Below are positions 6,490-16,070 of a DNA stretch of 64,000 bases, piece after piece. Under the pieces are notes generated by a model. It ran no database searches. It was not told the origin of the DNA and saw only the letters and a program-made list of their open reading frames with translations. The position numbers and the translations under genes were made by a program. The first letter of the stretch is position 1; each line of letters opens with the position of its first letter. Source of the stretch: Desulfomonilia bacterium (lineage in GTDB: Bacteria > Desulfobacterota > Desulfomonilia > UBA1062). The stretch spans positions 96,001 through 160,000 of the forward strand of contig JBEKDT010000010.1 of the NCBI GenBank assembly GCA_050014195.1, in the 5' to 3' direction.

Positions 6490-8103
6490 TCATTGTCCCT
6501 GCGGCGGCAGGGAACATATGGTGGGTGCATTTTTATTCATTCGCGAACAGATCTTTTTGTGGAGCTTATACAGGTTCAGGAACTCGTCGAATATCTCGCT
6601 GTAGATTTTCGTGTTATCCGGATTGGGCTGGTATTCGGCCTTGATCCCGATGCGATCCGGGATTTCTTCCACCGTGATATACTTCAATGCAATTGCGGCA
6701 AGAAAGGCTGCACCGCGTGCATTTGCATAGATGGGGCCCTTGACCTGCCGGATGGGCCTGTTAAGGACATCGGCCATAATCTGCGACCAGACATCCGAAT
6801 TGGCGCCGCCGCCGATGAAATTGAGGTGCGTAAAAGGCCTTCCCATAAACTTTTCTACCGGGTCAAGCAGCCACCTCTGGTTGAATGCCACGCCTTCGAA
6901 TACGGCCCGGGCAATGTCTTCCCTGGTGTTTTCCAGGGACAGGTTGAAGAAGGAAGACCTGATGTGGCAGTCTTCAACAGGCGTGCGTTCTCCGTACAGC
7001 CAGGGGGTGAAGATGACATTGTTGGAGCCCGGCGGGACCCGCGAAACAATCTTGTCAAGAAACTTGAAGATGTCGGGGGTGTTTTCCTCAACCATGAGCT
7101 CGTCTTTGTGATACAGGATATTGTCCCTCAGCCAGGTAAGACACTTGCCTGCACACTCCTGCTCGGTGAGAATAAGGTATCGTCCGGGGATGGGGCTTGG
7201 GAATGAGCCGAAGGAGTGGAACAGATCGGTCTTTTTAAAAGGCACATGGGCCGAGATCCAGGAAGAGGTGCCGATGTAGATATGGCCCTCGAAATCTCTC
7301 ACCGCGCCCGAGCCCACGCACGCCGACGGCACGTCCGGGGTGCCGCCTATGACGGGTGTATCGGGCTTCAAGCCCAGCTCCGAAGCCACTTCTTTCTTTA
7401 CCGGCCCGAGTATGTCCACGGCCCGTATCAGGTCAGGAAGCTTTGCCCGATCGATCCGGGCCATCTTCAAAAGCCTGTCATGATAAACCACATGGGAGGG
7501 GTCGCGATTGTCCGTTACCCAGTGGAGCAGGATCGAATCGTAGGTGGCTGCAAACCTGCCCGTCAGACGCAGATTGATGTAATCCTTGGGTTCAAGAAAT
7601 TTATATGTCCTGGCATAGACATCAGGGTAGTCCCTCTTCAGCCAGAGTATGTGTGCAAGAGGGTCCTTGCCTGACGCGGCAGGTGCACCCCCTGTCAGCC
7701 GGAGCCAGTGCATGAGTTTCAGCAAGGGATAGCCCTCGAACTTGATGGGGCCTTTTAGTATATCCTTCAATGCATCAGAGCCCCTGCAGTCCATCCAGAT
7801 GATGGCGTTCATCAGGTTCCTGCCGTCCCGGTCCACCGGAACGGTGCCCGACCACTGGGTGGTGACGCTCACTGCGACAATGTCTTCAGCCGGCACCAGA
7901 CCCTTCACAAGCACTTTTTTCGAGGTGGACATAATGGCGTTCCACCAGCCTTCCGGGTCCTGCTCCGCACCTCCGCCGGGAAGCAGGATGACCTTGGTAT
8001 CCTGGAACTCGCTGTCCAGCACCTCACCATATACCGAGATCAGGGCGGTCTTGGGGCCGGATGTGCCCAGGTCGATGGCCAGTATGTATTTGTCTTTGCC
8101 CAT
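6490..8103 (-). CDS. FGGY-family carbohydrate kinase (xylulokinase-like)
   Basis: 'AIDLGTSGPK', 'EQDPEGWW', 'IIWMDCR', 'IGTSSW', 'PWLYGERTP', 'GGGANSDVWSQIMAD'. Confidence 0.92.
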   Translation of the reverse strand: MGKDKYILAIDLGTSGPKTALISVYGEVLDSEFQDTKVILLPGGGAEQDPEGWWNAIMSTSKKVLVKGLVPAEDIVAVSVTTQWSGTVPVDRDGRNLMNAIIWMDCRGSDALKDILKGPIKFEGYPLLKLMHWLRLTGGAPAASGKDPLAHILWLKRDYPDVYARTYKFLEPKDYINLRLTGRFAATYDSILLHWVTDNRDPSHVVYHDRLLKMARIDRAKLPDLIRAVDILGPVKKEVASELGLKPDTPVIGGTPDVPSACVGSGAVRDFEGHIYIGTSSWISAHVPFKKTDLFHSFGSFPSPIPGRYLILTEQECAGKCLTWLRDNILYHKDELMVEENTPDIFKFLDKIVSRVPPGSNNVIFTPWLYGERTPVEDCHIRSSFFNLSLENTREDIARAVFEGVAFNQRWLLDPVEKFMGRPFTHLNFIGGGANSDVWSQIMADVLNRPIRQVKGPIYANARGAAFLAAIALKYITVEEIPDRIGIKAEYQPNPDNTKIYSEIFDEFLNLYKLHKKICSRMNKNAPTICSLPPQGQ

Positions 8104-8128
8104 TTTAATTTATATCTTTGCCATGACC

Positions 8129-8182
8129 GTTAAACAAAGAATAGTGCCGGTCAGGTCAAAAAAGTGATAAATCTGGCCAAAA
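8129..8182 (-). promoter_or_regulatory. Putative AraC-type operator/promoter (TCAGGTCAAA / TCTGGCCAAA)
   Basis: Direct repeats at 8151 and 8172 (21-bp period) lie between the kinase operon and the divergent AraC gene. Confidence 0.55.
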
Positions 8183-8273
8183 GGATAGTGTTATGATATA
8201 GGGGATACAATTGATTTTGTGAGATAGAATACATTCCGGGTAAATGACTTCACATCGGGGGGGCGATCTGGCC

Positions 8274-9281
8274 ATGGATAGGATACCTTCCTACAGTGCG
8301 AAATGGCTGGTGCATCAGCTTGTCATACGGGGTGTCCCCTTAGACCGGATCCTGAGAGGCACGGACCTGTCCGAGGCCTGGATGAAAGATGAGAATGCGC
8401 TCATCGCACAGGCCGACTATCTGAAGATCGTGGGCAATGCCTTTGATGAAACAAAAGATCCCGCCCTGGCGCTTCATCTGGGCCAGAAGCCGAACCTGGG
8501 AGAGCTCGGCATATGGGGATATGCCATCATCAGCAGCCCGACCCTGGGGGAGGCCAATGAGGTAACCCTGCAGTTCTGGGAGCTGAACGGTTCCCTGGTT
8601 ACGCTGTCCTACAGGAAGGAAAACGATTGTTCCACGTGGGAGATCCGCCCGGCCTTTCCCATGGATAGCCCCCGCGCATGGATTTTTGCCGTGGAAGAGC
8701 TTCTTGCAACCTTTTTTTCCGGTTCCGATTTCATATCGGATCAGGAATTTCCGATCACCGAGATCTGCCTGTCCTACCCAGACCCCGGCCATGGCGACCT
8801 TTACCGGGAGATGTTCAAGTGCCCCATACATTTCAACAAGGACGTGGACCTCTTCCGCATCTGCTTTCCCTTCGAGGATGTCCCCACATCCATGGGCAAC
8901 CCCCATCTGGCCGCCATATGCAAGCAGCAGTGCCAGGAGCTCATGGCAAAGCTCAAGGGGTCTGACGAGCTGATAGGCGCCATCCGGGATGCAATCATCG
9001 CTTCCCTGGGCCAGTTCCCGCGCCTGCCGGAGATCGCTGCACACCTGGCCATGAGCCCGCGGACCCTCCGCAGACGCCTTCTGGAAAGAAATACCACCTA
9101 CCAGCATATCCTCGATGAGATTCGTTCGGAATTGGCAAAAGAATATATCGTGACCACCAGTCTCAGCGTTGACCAGATCGCCAGCCGCATCGGGTTTTCC
9201 GAGGCCACTACGCTGCGGCGCGCCTTTAAGAAATGGACCGGCCTGAATATCAAAGAGTTCAGGCGGATGGAAGTACAATAA
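8274..9281 (+). CDS. AraC-family transcriptional regulator (OruR/ArgR-like N-terminal domain)
   Basis: 'LGIWGYAIISSPTLGEA', and C-terminal HTHs 'AMSPRTLRRRL' and 'IGFSEATTLRRAFKKWTG'. Confidence 0.92.
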   Translation: MDRIPSYSAKWLVHQLVIRGVPLDRILRGTDLSEAWMKDENALIAQADYLKIVGNAFDETKDPALALHLGQKPNLGELGIWGYAIISSPTLGEANEVTLQFWELNGSLVTLSYRKENDCSTWEIRPAFPMDSPRAWIFAVEELLATFFSGSDFISDQEFPITEICLSYPDPGHGDLYREMFKCPIHFNKDVDLFRICFPFEDVPTSMGNPHLAAICKQQCQELMAKLKGSDELIGAIRDAIIASLGQFPRLPEIAAHLAMSPRTLRRRLLERNTTYQHILDEIRSELAKEYIVTTSLSVDQIASRIGFSEATTLRRAFKKWTGLNIKEFRRMEVQ

Positions 9282-9294
9282 AGAATAGAGGTGA

Positions 9295-9316
9295 ATGGTG
9301 AGCTGCATAGGATATG
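9295..9316 (-). mobile_element. Degenerate att-like copy of the tRNA-Val 3' end
   Basis: atggtgagctgcataggatatg vs tRNA atggtgggccgcataggatttg (19/22). It sits at the GC-rich to AT-rich transition, with a TGTTGGCAA tandem repeat at 9376/9387. Confidence 0.6.
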
Positions 9317-9606
9317 GGCCTTCTATTTTGAAGAGTGTGTCAATGTGAATTCAATAAGTTATGTCTCAAAAAACCTGTTGGCAAGTTGTTGGCAAATCAC
9401 TGGAAAACAACTGGAGATCTCAATATGAAACATATGAAGGATATGATGAAAATTGGACTAATAGTTAATCGAAGTAATTAACGGTTTGGCAGCTATATTA
9501 AATCTGACAAATATTACCAGAAGTGTAGAAAAGTTAAAGTGAAGCAAGATCCAATGAAATCAGATATTCTACAATATTCCTTAATATATTGTAATTATTG
9601 ATACTT

Positions 9607-11058
9607 CTACGTTTTGGATATCTTCTCCGCACCATAAAAATAACTATATCCTGACTTTATAGAAGCCAATGTTGGCCTCACTATTCTATATTCTAATAAC
9701 TCTTCTTTATTTTCAACTGTAGCCATTATACTAATAGTTTCATTAAGAGCTAATAGATCATCACTAAGAAATCCAATATCATTTTTTCCCTGATCAACTA
9801 TAAATATTCCATGATCTCCAATATTCAATCGTTTATTTACCTTTTCTCTTTTACTTCTTCTCTTATCAGACATAATATAAGAGAATTCTCTTTGATCTTC
9901 TACTCCAACAATATTAGTCAAATAAATATAGTTCTTAAGATTCTCTGGAGAGATTATATGATTATTTTCTAGTGATGAAATAACTTGATTTAATCTATCA
10001 CCTTCTTCGGTTAGAAATTGATCACGTATTGATTTTACTTGAGGGTTCTCAATATTGTTATGTATCAAGTCTATTAGCAAATTTGGCTGCATTTCAATTC
10101 TGCGGTAAAGTATACTGTTTAAATATTGTATCAATAACAATGCAGTAAGTATTTTTGCATCAAAATAGGGGATAGATATAGTTGATGCTAATTCATTGTT
10201 AAAAGTAAGAATATTAATAAATCTCTTAATGTCCCTAGGGTTATCTCCAAGTCCTTTTACTAATAAATCTCTGCAGTGTTTTAATTCTTCAGAAAGCATA
10301 GGATCTATGAAGATTTCCATAGATTGAGGTGCTATAGGTGGTATATTAAAAGGAAGTTGAACAATTTTATCAAGATATTGAGATTCACTTAGATCAATAT
10401 CTTTGTAATGATATTTGATGCTTTTTTCAAGTTCTGGGCGATCAACACCCAAAAAATATACACAGTTAGGTAAATTTAAATATAATTTCAACGATTCTAA
10501 TAGACTTAATATTTGTGGAGGCAAACAACGATCTAAGTCGTCAATAAAAAAAACTAACCTCTTTTTTGGTTCACCCTGAGCTTTATTTATGAGTTTTTCG
10601 AAATGTTTCCTCAACCGAACACGTGCTTCACGTACTTGGAAGCGTTCTTCTTCAAAACGTTTACCTAGATCATCTATATCTTGTGCACTCATAAGGGTGG
10701 TTGCCTTTAATAGAATAGAACTGAAAGCACTAGCAATTACTATAAGTAACTTTTTTTCCTCTTCATCCATGTTAAAAGTGTCAACTACAGTATGGAGTAA
10801 AGCAAGAACAGGATTTTCATCAAATTGATGTTGCCATGGATCAAACCAAACAGACTTAGTACTAGGTGAATTTAATTGCTGTTCGATGAGTTTCATAAGT
10901 GAAGTTTTACCAATTCCCCAACTCCCGTAAAGACCTATTACTATTGGAGTTTCACATTTTTCAGCCATACGTGCAAACGCCTTAGCATACTGGTTTCTAT
11001 TTAGATTATCAGTATTTGTTGCCTCATCATTTCGAATTATTGCTTCAAAAGATTTCAT
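9607..11058 (-). CDS. KAP-family P-loop NTPase with PilZ-like C-terminal domain
   Basis: 'DNLNRNQYA', Walker A 'GSWGIGKTS', 'WFDPWQH', Walker B 'LVFFIDDLDRC', 'YLDKIVQLPF', 'NPRDIKRFIN'. C-terminus 'DKRRSKR...VDQGKNDIGF...YGAE'. Confidence 0.88.
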   Translation of the reverse strand: MKSFEAIIRNDEATNTDNLNRNQYAKAFARMAEKCETPIVIGLYGSWGIGKTSLMKLIEQQLNSPSTKSVWFDPWQHQFDENPVLALLHTVVDTFNMDEEEKKLLIVIASAFSSILLKATTLMSAQDIDDLGKRFEEERFQVREARVRLRKHFEKLINKAQGEPKKRLVFFIDDLDRCLPPQILSLLESLKLYLNLPNCVYFLGVDRPELEKSIKYHYKDIDLSESQYLDKIVQLPFNIPPIAPQSMEIFIDPMLSEELKHCRDLLVKGLGDNPRDIKRFINILTFNNELASTISIPYFDAKILTALLLIQYLNSILYRRIEMQPNLLIDLIHNNIENPQVKSIRDQFLTEEGDRLNQVISSLENNHIISPENLKNYIYLTNIVGVEDQREFSYIMSDKRRSKREKVNKRLNIGDHGIFIVDQGKNDIGFLSDDLLALNETISIMATVENKEELLEYRIVRPTLASIKSGYSYFYGAEKISKT

Positions 11059-11323
11059 TTATTGAATCCCCTTTTCTCATTACATGGTAATTTATCAATT
11101 ATAACTAACCATTTATAATTCTCCTCGTAACATAAGAACCATCTCGATTTAATGTTTTCTCAGTCATCTTGATTGCATAGATTCAACAGTGGATCACCCG
11201 TCAGTTAGACCATCTTTTACGATCTTCTATCCTACACTATTTACAGAAGAACAATTGCATTATATCTAGATATCAGGTGCAAGGCAATATGCTATTATAA
11301 AACTTAGACAATAACTTTTGTGC

Positions 11324-11431
11324 GAGACTGTTGAAAAACCTCAAAAATCGGTTTTTATATTTTTTAACTGATTGATTTTTCATCACATAAAAATGTCGAA
11401 AACTTATGGTGGGGGCTTTTTCAACAGACTC
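11324..11431. mobile_element. MITE-like element with 15-bp terminal inverted repeats
   Basis: GAGACTGTTGAAAAA ... TTTTTCAACAGACTC (14/15 match), 108 bp, no transposase. Confidence 0.6.
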
Positions 11432-11598
11432 TGCCATTAGATACGTTTGGGATAAAAGTCGACTCATACAGAGGTTTATACCTAAGATCTCTAGTTAATT
11501 AAAAAAATATAGACGGAGGAATCGAACTCCCGTACTACATGACCTAGCCTAGTTTTACAGGCGCATTACACATCTTTTACACAATTAATTTAATATCA

Positions 11599-12909
11599 TT
11601 AATCTTTTATAATCTTATTTATAATAGGTTTTAATTTAATATCAGATAAAAGATGAACCCCTAATAGTCTTCTCTTGTTTACATTGTCAGTTGAATATTT
11701 ACTGTTTATAAGTTTGTTATAATCTATAATATATTCTCTTAAGAGCTTATCAATTTTATTATCAATATGTTCCAGTAATTGAGTATCATTACAAAAATAA
11801 TATTGGTTACCCCATCCGAATACAATATTATCTACCATACTTAGTGTCTCTGCGAATGACCTTTTATCCTTTAATTTACATTTTATGGGAGTTTTCATGG
11901 ATTCTAAGCTATTATTAAAATTATTTTTAACTTTCTCTATAAGTCTAAAGCATGACTTTCTATCAGGCCTAATTAATCCTTTTAAAACTTCACAGCCAAG
12001 AAATTTTAGACCATTAGCAGTATAACCAAAATCTGATTTAGCTTTATCACTTAAAGGATCATATGCTCTTAAATTTAGTTGTTTTAAAATCTCTTGTGCA
12101 CTCTTAAAAGCGGTAAATACCTTACTTCTTGATTTACCTAAAATTAAAAAATCATCTATGTACCTTAAACATCTTATTCCACGATCATTCATTCTTATGT
12201 CGAACTCGTTAAGAAGAATATTCCCTAAGAGGGGAGATAAACAACAACCTTGGGCTACTCCTATATCAAATATTGGGAATAGGTGCTTATATTTTCCAAG
12301 TATATTTAAATTTGACAATTCCACATCGGTAGCTTTTATAAGTAAGTCATTGAATATTGGATCATCAATTTCATCCTTAATTTTTGATAAAACTATTTCT
12401 CTTGGAATATTTCTGAAAAATTCTTGTATGTCAGAACGGATATAATATTGTGCTCCATTAAGAATTGTTTCATATGTGACTCTTATTGCTTCAGGAACTC
12501 CTTGATCTTCTATACCTCCGAAACTTGAATCATTAATAAAATATTTTTGTATGTTAGAGTCTTCTTGGAGGACATCTAGAATACTTCTTTGTACAATCCT
12601 ATTTTTTACTGAAGCCTTGACTATTGGTCTAAAATTTTGATTTGGTTTTGGTAATAATATTCCATCTGATTTATCGAACTTAAATATCTGATCACGGAGT
12701 TGGCGGGATATCCTAGAAATATGCCGTTCGGAATCATTACTGAAATTTTTTATAATATTTCTGGTTTTTTCTGATTTTGATTTTAAACCGCTCTCCAATA
12801 CTATCTTCCAGGCCTGTCGCAATCTAAGAATACTTCTAACTTTCTTGTTTGAGTTATTAATAATATCTCCTCTTTGCTGAGCCACGTTGGCAAACCCAAT
12901 CTCAGCCAT
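11599..12909 (-). CDS. Group II intron-like reverse transcriptase, G2L4-like (YIDD); real start possibly ATT at 12861
   Basis: RT motifs 'RPIV..SVKNRIVQRSILDVLQ', 'SSFGG', 'YIRSDIQEFF', 'GVAQGCCLSPLLGNI', 'LRYIDDFLILG', 'AYDP', 'FLGC'. Thumb 'FGWGNQYYFCN' and C-terminal 'RRLLGVHLL'. No endonuclease domain and no intron boundaries seen. Confidence 0.9.
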   Translation of the reverse strand: MAEIGFANVAQQRGDIINNSNKKVRSILRLRQAWKIVLESGLKSKSEKTRNIIKNFSNDSERHISRISRQLRDQIFKFDKSDGILLPKPNQNFRPIVKASVKNRIVQRSILDVLQEDSNIQKYFINDSSFGGIEDQGVPEAIRVTYETILNGAQYYIRSDIQEFFRNIPREIVLSKIKDEIDDPIFNDLLIKATDVELSNLNILGKYKHLFPIFDIGVAQGCCLSPLLGNILLNEFDIRMNDRGIRCLRYIDDFLILGKSRSKVFTAFKSAQEILKQLNLRAYDPLSDKAKSDFGYTANGLKFLGCEVLKGLIRPDRKSCFRLIEKVKNNFNNSLESMKTPIKCKLKDKRSFAETLSMVDNIVFGWGNQYYFCNDTQLLEHIDNKIDKLLREYIIDYNKLINSKYSTDNVNKRRLLGVHLLSDIKLKPIINKIIKD

Positions 12910-13040
12910 TTGAAGAGCATGTCATTCTGTGGGGGTTTCAGTGTCTGACCCGACCCAGCCGACAGTATTGTTGTCGGTGCATCTTTGAGCTTGAGCAGCG
13001 CCATAGGATGGCCCATTCAGTAAAGATGCCAGAATGAACG
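12876..13040 (-). ncRNA. Structured RT-associated leader RNA (multibranch core plus 3' hairpin)
   Basis: GC-richer than the flanks. Stems 13030-37/12922-29 (8 bp), 13022-29/12979-86 (8 bp), 13000-12 hairpin, 12959-77 hairpin, 12930-57 hairpin, and 12876-81/12901-06. Confidence 0.7.
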
Positions 13041-13042
13041 AT

Positions 13043-13096
13043 GGTACACATATAGTGCCCATAAGAACACTATATACTACATATAGTAAAAATCAA
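13043..13096 (-). promoter_or_regulatory. Sigma70-like promoter with tandem NrdR-like boxes
   Basis: Minus strand TTGATT-N16-TATAGT. Boxes ttACTATATGTAGTat (13074-13089) and gcACTATATGTgtacc (13043-13058) are 31 bp apart. Confidence 0.6.
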
Positions 13097-13223
13097 GTTA
13101 AATTATATCGAATAAATTTCATATAATAGAAGCCTAATTTAAATATGGGAAAAATAGACTAAGATTTCAGTGGAATATTAAAATACTAGCGAAGACAGGC
13201 AGGCACCGAAGTCAGAGTCAAGG

Positions 13224-13342
13224 CGGTCACTGGTAGGTTCCCTGGATCTCGATCAGGGCTAAGGCTTTCAGTCCCGGAACGGAGTTTCACGTAGTGCAGG
13301 GCCGAAGCCTCCCTAAGCGAGATAGCGGGGCCAGTGACAGCA
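13224..13342. other. Unassigned GC-rich structured element (multi-hairpin junction)
   Basis: GTCACTGG(13226-33)/CCAGTGAC(13331-38) encloses CCCTG/CAGGG and AGGCTT/AAGCCT hairpins. Confidence 0.45.
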
Positions 13343-13345
13343 TAG

Positions 13346-13628
13346 AAATCGGGGGACACCATACTAGTTTTGTTGTTTCCTGGGTCTGCCGCCCTTGAGA
13401 GAAGCCAACCTTTCAATTACTTATCTTCCAATAAAAACTAGTAATGAACCTGGGATTCAAACCAAATCTGGGGACACCATACTAGTTTTGTTATTTTCTA
13501 GGTCTACAGCACTTGAGGAGGGCTAACCTTTTCAATAACTTATTTCCCAATCTGACAATAATGCATCATTTTCCTATGGTCGTCCAGTAGGTTCATATCT
13601 AAAATAATAGTTTGGTATCTCCGGATTT
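13346..13628. repeat. Two ~87-bp direct repeats plus one short inverted partial copy (GGGGACACCATACTA core, REP/REPIN-like)
   Basis: 13346-13432 and 13464-13551 align throughout. 13601-13628 is a reverse-complement partial copy. Confidence 0.75.
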
Positions 13629-13777
13629 CCACGATCATTATTTTCTCCTGTTAACTGTAGAGTGGGACGAGAGCAACGAAATCCACCAAGGCATTATAAT
13701 ACATAGGGAAAAAATGAAGGCAGATCTCATCAAATGAAATGACAATGTGTGTAGAGTTCTTTGAAATCAGCAGAGTT

Positions 13778-14089
13778 CTAAATAACCTTCTTGTTGCGAC
13801 TCCCATCACGTTTACGGAAATGATGTTCCGCCCTGTCCAAGGGCGTCCAGATCAGTCACCTGGTATGGATTTGGTTCTCTTTTGAACGGAACAGGTTAGG
13901 AATCGCAGTGAGTTCGCATCCTGGATTTCCCATGAGTCCTCCGATGAGAAACGAAGCACCCAAAATTGCCAGAGCCCCCGTGCCTATAACTGTAAGGGTG
14001 TCCACACCGACAGCCCAGATCAGCACAAAGGTCCCAACCCCAAAAAGCACGCGTGATACTCGTCCGAACAACAACGGTTCAAGCTTCAT
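13778..14089 (-). CDS. Small membrane protein, candidate selenoprotein (UGA readthrough at 13856-13858)
   Basis: ...GNPGCELTAIPNL...HTR-UGA-LIWTPLDRAEHHFRK...VI*. Hairpin CGCCCT-TGGAC-AGGGCG starts 10 nt after the UGA. GGAG SD upstream. Confidence 0.65.
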
Positions 14090-14322
14090 CCTGTTCTCCT
14101 ACCCTTATATAAATGACCAGACTGTGACTTGTCCACCTAATGTGTCTAAAAACTTCATGAACCCGGGATTCATGTCATGAGGATAAGAAATATCAACACT
14201 GCCGCTACAAAGATAACAACCGGACTAAATATCTTTATCAGTATCCTGAGATCATCCATTTACAAAAGCCCCGCCCTTTCAGTTGTTCCGCTGGAGGTAT
14301 CCTGACAGATCCTTTTTTTATC

Positions 14323-15546
14323 TCATGCCTGCTGAAGATGCACAGGGACTTTGATATCATGGAGCAACAGCGCCAGGATGAAGGCGACCCCAAAGAGTAT
14401 GGTAATCGCGGTCATGTTGAAGAGGAACACGATGGGCAGACCGCTTATCTGGCCGCTCAGCATCAAAATCCCGTTTGAGGTAGCCTCCGGTACCGGATGG
14501 GTCTTTTCCACCGCATAGGTCAGCCCGACCGGCATGGCCGAGATGAGGAAGAAACCGAAGACAAAACCGCACAGGCCTAAAAGAACAATCGAGGAGAGAT
14601 ACTGCAGGAAAAGGGAAAGCGGCACCGCCATACCGGCCGCCATGATCAGGAAGATCCTCCTTTTGTGGTACTTGTCGGACAGTGCAGACAGGATTACCGC
14701 CCCGCACATGCCCCCGATCACGATCAGCCCGCCGACTATGCCCGGGGCGAGGGCCGAGTCGATGTCAAGCGGCCGGTTTTTGAATATGTAATCGATCTTG
14801 GTCAGGATGGCATTAAACGCGCCTACGCCAATGAAAAAGAGTCCCAAGAGGAAGAGAAAGTCGCGGTTTCTGAAAAGCGCTTTCAATCCGATGGTCATGG
14901 TGACCTTTTTCTCGGCTGCGATTGCGTTGGGCGGCAGCTTTGGTTTGTCCTTCACCAATACGAGATACAGGATCATGCCGATCAGGGCGGGGATGCCGTA
15001 CAGATACAGGACGGCATCGATCCCCTGCCTGATCGCGCCGATATTCCGGTAATGCGCGAGGATAAAATCGGTGGCGAACATGACGATCGTGAAGCCGATG
15101 AACAGGGACATGGTCAACAATCCCGATGCCAGGGCCTCTTCATTTTCCGGGAACCAGTTCGATGCCAGTTTGGTAAAGGCATTGAGCACGAACGGTTGAG
15201 CGATGGCACATCCGATCATGCAGGCGAGGAGCCAGCCGTAACTTGGTGCGAAGATACGGAGAAAGCCGCACAGGCCCACCAGGACAACGCCGATCCCTGC
15301 CCCCTTCTTCAGCCCGATGTTGTCGATGCACCAGGCGGCGGGGAGGCAGAAGGGGATCCAAGCGAGCATGGCCAGTATGGCAAGCAAATCAATGGCGTCG
15401 ATATTTCCGTGGGTATAGACGGCAGCAGCATCCCTGGCAATAGGAGCGAAGGTCATCCACATGATCTGGGACATGGCTATGTTCAGCATGAAAACTCCCA
15501 ATACGACCCAGCGGTAAGGGGATACGGATGAATGGATATTTTGCAT
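14323..15546 (-). CDS. MFS transporter
   Basis: Many TM segments, 'YRWVVLG', 'LASNWFPENE', 'LSDKYHKRR'. Confidence 0.9.
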   Translation of the reverse strand: MQNIHSSVSPYRWVVLGVFMLNIAMSQIMWMTFAPIARDAAAVYTHGNIDAIDLLAILAMLAWIPFCLPAAWCIDNIGLKKGAGIGVVLVGLCGFLRIFAPSYGWLLACMIGCAIAQPFVLNAFTKLASNWFPENEEALASGLLTMSLFIGFTIVMFATDFILAHYRNIGAIRQGIDAVLYLYGIPALIGMILYLVLVKDKPKLPPNAIAAEKKVTMTIGLKALFRNRDFLFLLGLFFIGVGAFNAILTKIDYIFKNRPLDIDSALAPGIVGGLIVIGGMCGAVILSALSDKYHKRRIFLIMAAGMAVPLSLFLQYLSSIVLLGLCGFVFGFFLISAMPVGLTYAVEKTHPVPEATSNGILMLSGQISGLPIVFLFNMTAITILFGVAFILALLLHDIKVPVHLQQA

Positions 15547-15659
15547 AAAACCTCCTCTTGAAAATAACGGGCGTAAAGCTGCTCCGAATAAGGACGACAG
15601 ATGCTGAGGTCAAAAGCTGCACCAGTGCAAGTAAAACCGAGGCGGCAATAATCAGGCCT

Positions 15660-16070
15660 TTACGCCACGGGTTTTAAGCCTATCAGCACGGCAATAGCAA
15701 CGCCAAAGCCGACACACCAGATGTTGATAAAAGCATTTAATACCAGGTCAAGCTTGGAGGTCATATATATGCCGTTTTGAATATTGAAGCTGAAGTCCAA
15801 CAACCCCAAGAATACCAGTGCGCCGGCCGCTACCAGCGACAGCCTGCTGCCCAATGGATTATGTAACAGAAGCAGTATGCCGGCTATTAGCAGTAGTATG
15901 GCCAGCAATCCATCCGGCAGCGGGAAGGAGTGCTCATAGGCATAATAGCATTGCGGAGGATTTTCCGGCGCAAGGCCTATGGTAAAAAAGCCTATCCAGA
16001 ACAGTATGATCCCGATGCCTGTCAGCAGCTCAAGTACGGCAATTGTTTTCAGTCCTTCTATTTCAATCAT
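15660..16070 (-). CDS. Hypothetical four-TM membrane protein
   Basis: Hydrophobic ORF with 'YEHSFPLPDG', GAGG SD, co-oriented within the cluster. Confidence 0.7.
   Translation of the reverse strand: MIEIEGLKTIAVLELLTGIGIILFWIGFFTIGLAPENPPQCYYAYEHSFPLPDGLLAILLLIAGILLLLHNPLGSRLSLVAAGALVFLGLLDFSFNIQNGIYMTSKLDLVLNAFINIWCVGFGVAIAVLIGLKPVA

Follow-up and report, generated by a model that had tools for sequence, protein, structure and literature searches.

What does a compact structured leader do in front of a free-standing bacterial reverse transcriptase (RT) gene? The question is raised by a locus on the minus strand of a stretch of 64,000 nucleotides (nt) from an uncultured peat/wetland bacterium of the Desulfomonilia; the whole stretch is called the window here, and positions are counted from its first letter. 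The locus, at 11599-13039, comprises an open reading frame (ORF) for an RT and, 5' of its start region on the same strand, a folded element and a small hairpin. To our knowledge, G2L4 RTs are the only class of bacterial group II-like RTs with a demonstrated host function, the repair of double-strand breaks, and the role of the repeats upstream of their genes has so far been left open in the available text of the literature. We show that the window RT is a member of the known G2L4 family and that its leader represents a single copy of the long direct repeat (LDR) associated with G2L4 genes: the pairing of a G2L4 RT with LDRs is known, and what we describe is its one-copy form. Over the window and 80 relatives the LDR is a covarying strand-specific fold whose distance to the RT start is fixed and after which comes a conserved hairpin at the start codon, and these comparative data turn a vague observation on repeats into an RNA-protein hypothesis that can be tested. 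As regards the window, the outcome is mostly a classification: a known RT family, apparently acquired horizontally, in a small island beside a KAP-family NTPase.

A free-standing RT of the G2L4 family

The RT frame extends at most over 436 aa (11599-12909, minus strand; identified from the list of ORFs, Pfam and the match to solved structures), and RVT_1 (6.4e-21) is its sole Pfam domain, so that the protein is without an endonuclease domain. The active site reads YIDD (residues 250-253, at 12151-12162 on the minus strand, seen in the translation as LRYIDDF, residues 248-254). In an alignment of 30 homologs R249, Y250, D252 and D253 show no variation, and I251 hardly any (at least 90% conserved). 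The accessible part of an earlier survey gives YIDD in RT block 5, in place of YADD, as the hallmark of G2L4 (PMC4244168). In a search of all solved structures the top match was the "Group II intron-like 4 reverse transcriptase" (PDB chains 9d5x/9d4s; 242.6 bits, E 7.5e-71), with which residues 22-425 align end to end, thumb included (residues 6-410 of the G2L4 chain); the second-best solved structure, a group II intron RT, reached 61.5 bits.

For the comparative analysis a protein search yielded 850 relatives of the RT at E<=0.001 (the best about 50% identical, about 420 aa), and a scan of one genome per species yielded 162 encoding loci, 80 of which were kept as homolog loci and carry L numbers below. 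In a tree made with FastTree only, all 79 G2L4-like rows form one clade with support 100, separate from five outgroup YADD/YVDD RTs that were drawn from the window's own relatives. Since the Pseudomonas locus L031, which carries an LDR pair, matches the same solved G2L4 chain at 497 bits, the homolog loci and the published G2L4 family are the same thing, and the window RT is a member of it. The original prediction, made from the letters alone, had described a stand-alone YIDD RT with a group II-like thumb and neither endonuclease nor intron boundaries in AT-rich island DNA, and had noted a likeness to G2L4. The description agrees with the Pfam, structural, Rfam and GC results, and the likeness is confirmed by the solved chains and by the place of the protein in the tree, apart from YADD/YVDD RTs.

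Among known systems the nearest is the G2L4 RT of Pseudomonas aeruginosa (10.1101/2022.03.14.484287; 9d4s/9d5x, PMC11761039). It is also free-standing, about 410-440 aa long, with YIDD, a group II-type thumb and no En (endonuclease) domain, and it too lies in a low-GC island, where the same element immediately precedes the ORF with strand and distance alike. According to the accessible parts of the publications, the Pseudomonas enzyme is a DNA-repair polymerase active in microhomology-mediated end joining (MMEJ) as well as in snap-back synthesis at DNA ends, and long primers are not used by it efficiently. The two proteins are nevertheless distant, as the scores of 242.6 and 497 bits indicate, and the nearest relatives of the window RT lie in deltaproteobacterial bins. 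The window also differs by having one LDR and not two, no spacer with promoter and micro-ORF, a KAP NTPase downstream, and an RT that does not keep an arginine pair of the Pseudomonas enzyme, to which we return below.

Several other RT systems were considered and rejected. A mobile group II intron was set aside, as Rfam gave zero matches at E<=1 on both strands of 9000-14500 (Intron_gpII, group-II-D1D4 and retron RNA included) and the NCBIfam model of group II RT/maturases, TIGR04416, covers residues 50-394 at 144 bits, under its cut-off of 300. The leader itself is a three-arm element in which no likeness to intron domains was detected. With the msr-msd of a retron it has in common that it is a compact RNA, structured with a closing stem, and lies immediately 5' of the RT on the same strand; the LDR family occurs as direct repeats, however, with no effector gene and no known msDNA, and a retron was rejected on the score of the NCBIfam St85 model (44.5 bits, cut-off 235), the lack of an Rfam retron RNA match and the lack of a conserved effector. 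RT_UG17 was the second-best PADLOC model for the protein (2.7e-36). As far as the sources were accessible, UG17 is the former G2L3 according to one review, and DRT10 consists of an RT, a SLATT effector and a structured non-coding RNA and produces tandem-repeat cDNA. The RT is flanked by the KAP NTPase and small ORFs, and SLATT was not among the Pfam and PADLOC matches of the RT and KAP proteins, a scan that did not extend to these small ORFs; UG17/DRT10 was rejected because no SLATT gene was seen and the G2L4 match is far stronger.

A diversity-generating retroelement (DGR) has a pair of repeats, TR and VR, beside its RT. Two direct repeats of about 100-150 nt next to an RT, with one copy immediately 5' of its gene, resemble this arrangement. 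The LDR copies are, however, identical or nearly so, and adenine-specific differences were not evident in them, nor specifically sought; there is no target gene or Avd, and the RT is of a different lineage.

The long direct repeat, its fold and its copy number

LDRs upstream of G2L4 genes were described by Park et al. 2022 (10.1101/2022.03.14.484287), whose accessible text gives two copies of about 140 bp with a spacer of about 240 bp in about 70% of cases. It treats them as palindromic DNA repeats, rich in RNA-seq reads, that "modulate" survival: read depth on the bottom strand was 20-fold higher over the LDRs than over the ORF, and co-expression of LDRs altered survival of DNA damage with the protein level unchanged. 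As the same text names the top strand antisense, we infer that these bottom-strand reads are sense-strand RNA. In the literature searched we found no description of the structure of a G2L4 leader RNA, although the figures, supplement or journal version of Park et al. may hold the LDR fold or the spacer ORF.

The window leader aligns with the proximal LDR copies of the homolog loci and is one copy of the G2L4-associated LDR (12917-13039, minus strand). It is matched at 108 bits (E 4.9e-25) by R1, a covariance model that was built from a plain MAFFT alignment of 11 copies, those of the window and its 10 nearest relatives. In about 75 of the 80 homolog loci the RT is immediately preceded by an LDR, so that the RT and its upstream structured element are a conserved unit, as the original prediction had proposed. 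Two direct copies precede the RT in 52 of the 70 loci having at least 500 nt upstream. The copies are 108-194 nt long and 93.5-100% identical within a locus (28 of the 52 pairs are identical), unlike the LDRs of different loci, which diverge widely. Their starts are spaced by 334-383 nt in 45 of the 52 loci, and the proximal copy ends 82-126 nt ahead of the codon for RT residue 30. Searched against 715,381 bases (the window and the 80 loci, both strands), R1 gave 49 matches at E<=10, all on the RT strand and all at the places of a proximal or distal LDR.

The minimum free energy (MFE) fold of 12895-13060 on the minus strand has an 8-bp closing stem, the 5' strand UCAUUCUG (13030-13037) pairing with CAGAAUGA (12922-12929), around three arms: a long hairpin with a GGGCC...GGCGC tip (arm 1, 12979-13029), the hairpin CCGACA/UGUCGG (arm 2, 12959-12977) and a GGG...CCC arm (arm 3, 12931-12957). 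At -53.3 kcal/mol (z = -2.39; 2 of 200 shuffles as stable) the folding energy on its own is modest support; it is the conservation across other genomes that gives the fold its real support. RNAalifold returned the same three-arm architecture from the 11-copy plain MAFFT alignment, with 33 pairs and compensatory changes in 23 of them. When 49 copies were aligned by fitting to the model, standard pairs formed in 87.3% of cells, against 67.9% in column shuffles (none of 500 reached the observed value) and 39.6-47.6% when the 3' partner was slid, and 30 of the 33 pairs had compensatory changes. By helix, pairing in the 49 copies amounts to 87.9% in the closing stem (helix 1; compensatory changes in 4 of 4 pairs), 90.2% and 84.8% in arm 1 (helices 2 and 3), 87.5% in arm 2 (helix 4; 6 of 6 pairs) and 97.4% and 76.6% in arm 3 (helices 5 and 6). 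A model-fitted alignment of 37 rows gives the same picture, and the unfitted 11-copy alignment agrees in direction with the model-fitted covariation. From a plain MAFFT alignment of 53 copies, which is too divergent, RNAalifold recovered four pairs only, those at the base of arm 3 (GC 29, AU 18, CG 3).

Among paired LDR positions G-U or U-G cells number 160 and A-C or C-A cells 26, and in 47 of 53 copies the sense strand gives the more stable fold of the two strands, by a mean difference of 11.3 kcal/mol. The LDR is a strand-specific, covarying three-arm fold that favours the strand of the RT. The fold drawn in the original prediction, with its closing stem and three arms, was reproduced, and the homologs' upstream regions, to whose alignment that prediction had left the question of conservation, do covary. 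Its further remark that it could match the architecture to no named family holds for Rfam 15, in which LDR and spacer of 10 of the 80 loci were unmatched at the gathering score (the lone match was a tRNA elsewhere in L063); it does not hold in so far as the element has a counterpart in the LDRs in the accessible text of Park et al.

In copy number the window departs from most of its relatives. Its LDR is the only R1 match at E<=10 in the 64-kb window and in the 4.2-Mb genome, and neither a distal LDR nor a spacer was found in window or genome by R1 and BLAST. A collapsed repeat is unlikely, because contigs from three of four metagenome runs are continuous through the LDR and both flanks; the contig of the fourth run breaks inside the LDR without an alternative joint. 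Thirteen further solo loci occur among the 80. The solo state, present in 14 rows, requires 12 changes on the RT tree; the nearest rows to the window (L001, L002, L006, L007) are all two-copy, and the solo LDR of L075 is 100% identical to the LDR of two-copy L031. The single LDR of the window is derived rather than a product of assembly; solo forms would have come about several times over, the simplest route being recombination between the repeats. What is always kept is the RT with its proximal LDR (about 75 of the 80 loci).

The opposite change is seen in a locus of Bdellovibrionales (L016:3039-3920), with three identical LDRs and two identical spacers in a period of 376 nt; its 506-nt repeat match spans three 130-nt copies and two spacers. 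As this locus has three copies, the LDR-spacer unit can expand as a tandem array.

The LDR is followed at about 10 nt by a second element, the start-proximal hairpin P5 (GCUGAG/CUCAGC; 12876-12906, minus strand), recognised by its recurrence in homolog linkers. All 19 linkers of homologs that were folded, out of the 80 loci, contain it behind the proximal LDR, and its loop is conserved. In a MAFFT alignment of the linkers of 74 loci the core of 8 pairs is 77.0% paired, compared with 69.6% in shuffles (0 of 500 reach it), 32-57% with a slid partner and 70.2% in another register. RNAalifold called 0 pairs on this alignment and P5 was then picked by eye; the conservation of the hairpin has moderate support.

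The position of P5 bears on the start of the RT. In homologs the start codon comes a few nt after P5, and in the window ATG 12909 stands before it. Because P5 lies 5' of the start codon in homologs, yet inside the window ORF, a start later than ATG 12909 is indicated. More likely candidates are GTG 12885-12883, on the 3' side of the P5 loop, and the in-frame ATT 12864/12861, preceded by a Shine-Dalgarno (SD)-like AGAGGAG that was read from the sequence (12867-12873, minus strand). The closest homolog (66% identity) starts MAQQRGG, which aligns with window V9, the codon of that GTG. Whichever start holds, the initiation region is predicted to lie in or against a conserved hairpin. The original prediction had placed a GCUGAG/CUCAGC hairpin against the SD; the hairpin is there and is conserved, but it falls inside the ORF as drawn from ATG 12909, so that the start is likely later.

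A different picture of the same region is given by Nitrospira-type loci (L005, L008 and L011, with proteins P0065, P0082 and P0090), where the RT frame extends upstream without a stop into the 3' part of the LDR and gene callers pick an ATG in the closing stem, with a conserved predicted 'STEPRLASGGSV' N-terminal extension as the result.

In two-copy relatives the spacer between the LDRs measures 205-254 nt in 46 of 52 loci and is conserved across phyla. It contains a promoter-like TTGACA/TAnnnT site, a strong GGAGG Shine-Dalgarno sequence and a micro-ORF of 12-58 aa (examples are L006:3605-3828, L021:403-630 and L063:3536-3779). The micro-ORF has a [C/S]KNVP core in 43 of 52 spacers, whose nucleotides are almost invariant across phyla, which suggests a constraint at the nucleotide level. 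A small covarying hairpin follows the micro-ORF, and a second copy of CAAAAA(C/G)GT abuts the -10 site of the spacer.

The first 35 nt or so past the distal LDR are complementary to the linker and the 5' strand of P5, within the 70 nt or so that follow the proximal LDR of the same locus, and some loci use G-U pairs in this duplex. Duplexes formed within a locus have a mean of -29.6 kcal/mol, against -26.0 kcal/mol for those formed across loci, and are lower in 38 of the 52 (p about 7e-5). The complementarity may represent an alternative-pairing switch, not present in the window form; we did not find such a switch described in the literature searched, of which the figures, supplement and journal version of Park et al. 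were not covered.

What the leader may do

It would be logical to suggest, and we give it a probability of roughly 0.55, that the leader is the RT's own RNA partner, folded on the sense strand and tuning RT activity and/or translation through the LDR and P5. The locus would then be a horizontally acquired G2L4-type unit, made of a free-standing RT derived from group II introns and a cis-encoded leader of two parts, an LDR of about 125 nt and, after it, P5, carrying or abutting the start codon. The leader would be transcribed with the RT ORF or ahead of it, from the AT-rich DNA just upstream. A sigma-70-like match (TTGATT-16 nt-TATAGT; 13069-13096, minus strand) lies there, about 30 nt 5' of the LDR; the promoter scan of the region returned 27 sites against 21.1 expected, so it is weak evidence for this one. 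The transcript would fold on the sense strand and bind the RT, and the binding would adjust the activity of the RT, its translation or both. The window would represent a reduced form, from which the distal LDR and the spacer holding promoter and micro-ORF, present in most relatives, have disappeared, and one copy appears to be enough, because solo forms recur.

Such a mode of action would be akin to that of group II introns, in which intron domain IVa, at the RT start codon, serves as a binding site for the RT (LtrA of Ll.LtrB). The RT of the window is of the same lineage and its P5 hairpin likewise carries or abuts the RT start codon, and may by this analogy be a site of autoregulation. The analysis supplies a covariance model and natural one-copy and two-copy variants; among the homolog loci, possible cultured hosts of the two-copy form are Rhizobium sp. 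CCGE 510 (L063) and Parahaliea mediterranea DSM 21924 (L014), and of the one-copy form Chelatococcus sambhunathii DSM 18167 (L034) and Beijerinckia mobilis (L050).

A number of points weigh against an RNA partner. The covariation counts come partly from an alignment fitted to the structure, of related and non-independent sequences, and their independence is overstated. The LDR of the window itself folds at -43.4 kcal/mol on the sense strand and at -44.6 kcal/mol on the antisense strand, and five Pseudomonas-type copies are also more stable on the antisense strand. The distal LDR of two-LDR relatives lies upstream of the promoter-like site of the spacer, which a simple role as 5' leader does not explain. 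In the accessible text of the published work, repair by the G2L4 RT in vitro needs no RNA partner. For the Pseudomonas enzyme a plug in RT3a with residues D182, R190 and R191 and a Ser-rich RT0 loop are described (PMC11761039, as far as accessible). By sequence alignment alone, acidic E197 of the window protein, invariant among homologs, occupies the position of D182 and the RT0 loop reads S-K-S where the Pseudomonas enzyme has S-S-S; R190/R191 are replaced by G-K, so that the salt-bridge arginines are not both kept and the RT of the window may be regulated differently. Finally, expression in this organism, binding of the LDR by the RT and the regulatory role are what we infer from the comparisons above.

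Of the other explanations, an ordinary cis-regulatory 5' untranslated region (UTR), an attenuator, thermosensor or sensor of a ligand or of stress without contact to the RT, survives best, and we regard it as unlikely. The order of promoter-like site, LDR, P5 at the start codon and ORF suits it, as does the spacer of two-LDR relatives with its promoter-like site, strong SD and conserved micro-ORF; the complementarity of the distal segment to P5 looks like an alternative-pairing switch, and leader reads 20-fold more numerous than those of the ORF, as given in the accessible text, are typical of attenuation. A 5' UTR of this kind does not account for LDRs that changed survival and left the RT protein level unchanged (Park et al., 10.1101/2022.03.14.484287, accessible text). 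A second identical copy upstream of the promoter would be superfluous for a sensor, and no riboswitch or leader family of Rfam matches.

The original prediction had favoured another role, in which the leader is a template and/or primer RNA from which the RT makes a defined cDNA for defence or repair, in the manner of retrons, DRT2 or DRT10. We consider it improbable. A structured covarying RNA does adjoin the RT gene in nearly all loci, and LDR RNA is abundant in Pseudomonas according to the accessible text; conversion mediated by cDNA could explain why copies are 93.5-100% identical within a locus and diverge between loci, and the island holds a KAP NTPase resembling QatA, PifA and PDC-S20. 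Against it stands the composition of the loci: no conserved effector was seen to accompany the RT among the 80, a KAP gene gave one weak match in them, and the SLATT partner by which UG17/DRT10 is defined is not among the Pfam and PADLOC matches of the RT and KAP proteins here. The characterised relative acts on DNA ends, by MMEJ and snap-back synthesis, uses long primers inefficiently and has no msDNA-like product reported in the accessible text. No result here supports the templating of a defined cDNA or a defence role, and no effector gene accompanies the RT.

That the LDR acts as DNA, as an att-like or hairpin-forming site for recombination or mobility of a small cassette, with the window keeping a scar from an event of this kind, is quite improbable. 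In its favour, the copies are identical direct repeats, solo loci recur beside two-LDR relatives as recombination predicts (12 changes for 14 rows, and L075 with the LDR of L031), tyrosine recombinases nearby and insertion at different genomic sites are mentioned in the accessible text of Park et al. (10.1101/2022.03.14.484287) and the finding of the gene in 0 of 40 relatives searched fits horizontal acquisition. Against it, the excess of G-U over A-C and the sense bias in stability indicate single-strand, strand-specific folding, orientation and distance to the RT start are fixed in all loci, RNA that we take as sense-strand accumulates over the LDRs in Pseudomonas (same text), and recombination between repeats accounts for the solo state without being the function of the LDR.

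We may even suggest, as a very long shot, that the LDR RNA is also a substrate of its own RT, its cDNA copy recombining back into the locus or, alternatively, bridging breaks as a template. If true, this would explain the 93.5-100% identity of LDRs within a locus across phyla despite their divergence between loci. G2L4 would then be a non-mutagenic, self-homogenising remnant of a retroelement with an RNA cofactor, and the conserved micro-ORF with the alternative pairing of P5 would be a translation-coupled switch, lost in the solo form of the window.

The island and its neighbours

The unit lies in AT-rich DNA, whose GC content is 0.27-0.37 between 9501 and 13000, compared with about 0.47-0.56 in the flanks. 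A close homolog of the RT was found in 0 of 40 relatives' genomes searched, the best being 29% identical. The match of the left flank to two relatives, G003 and G013, stops at about 9273-9283; on the right the match begins at about 13760, and no relative's contig joins both flanks as an empty site would. In the RT tree the relatives are scattered over many phyla regardless of taxonomy. Horizontal acquisition fits, because there is no close homolog in relatives, the flank matches end and the RT tree ignores taxonomy.

G2L4 units with LDRs were also met in bins labelled Klebsiella pneumoniae, Candidatus Saccharibacteria, Thermotogae and Dehalococcoidia (L080 and L021 included), where contamination of bins is possible; the Proteobacteria-only range given to G2L4 in older surveys, as far as their text was accessible (PMC4244168), is narrower than that of the bins here.

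The same island contains, some 540 nt downstream of the RT, the gene for a KAP-family P-loop NTPase of 483 aa (9607-11058, minus strand). It resembles QatA (NCBIfam, 163.5 bits with a cut-off of 600), PifA and the PADLOC candidate PDC-S20. As a partner of the RT it was rejected, since the one weak tblastn match in the 80 loci was far from the RT.

Between the RT stop and the KAP gene, at about 11520-11560 on the minus strand, there is a stretch resembling the T-arm and 3' end of a tRNA, with the core GTTCGATTCC; a tRNA scan of 8000-16000 with ARAGORN reported none, this stretch included. This stretch may be left over from an integration site.

On the other side of the leader, 13186-13560 is richer in GC, and a 526-nt segment reaching into it (12895-13420) folds as a whole at z = -3.25. 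The possibility that 13186-13560 is a diverged distal LDR or spacer was rejected, as it has no R1 match and no BLAST match to spacers or LDRs. This part contains a 68-nt direct repeat (13346-13413 and 13464-13531, 82% identity), a 27-nt core of which recurs elsewhere in the genome and in other genomes of the genus.

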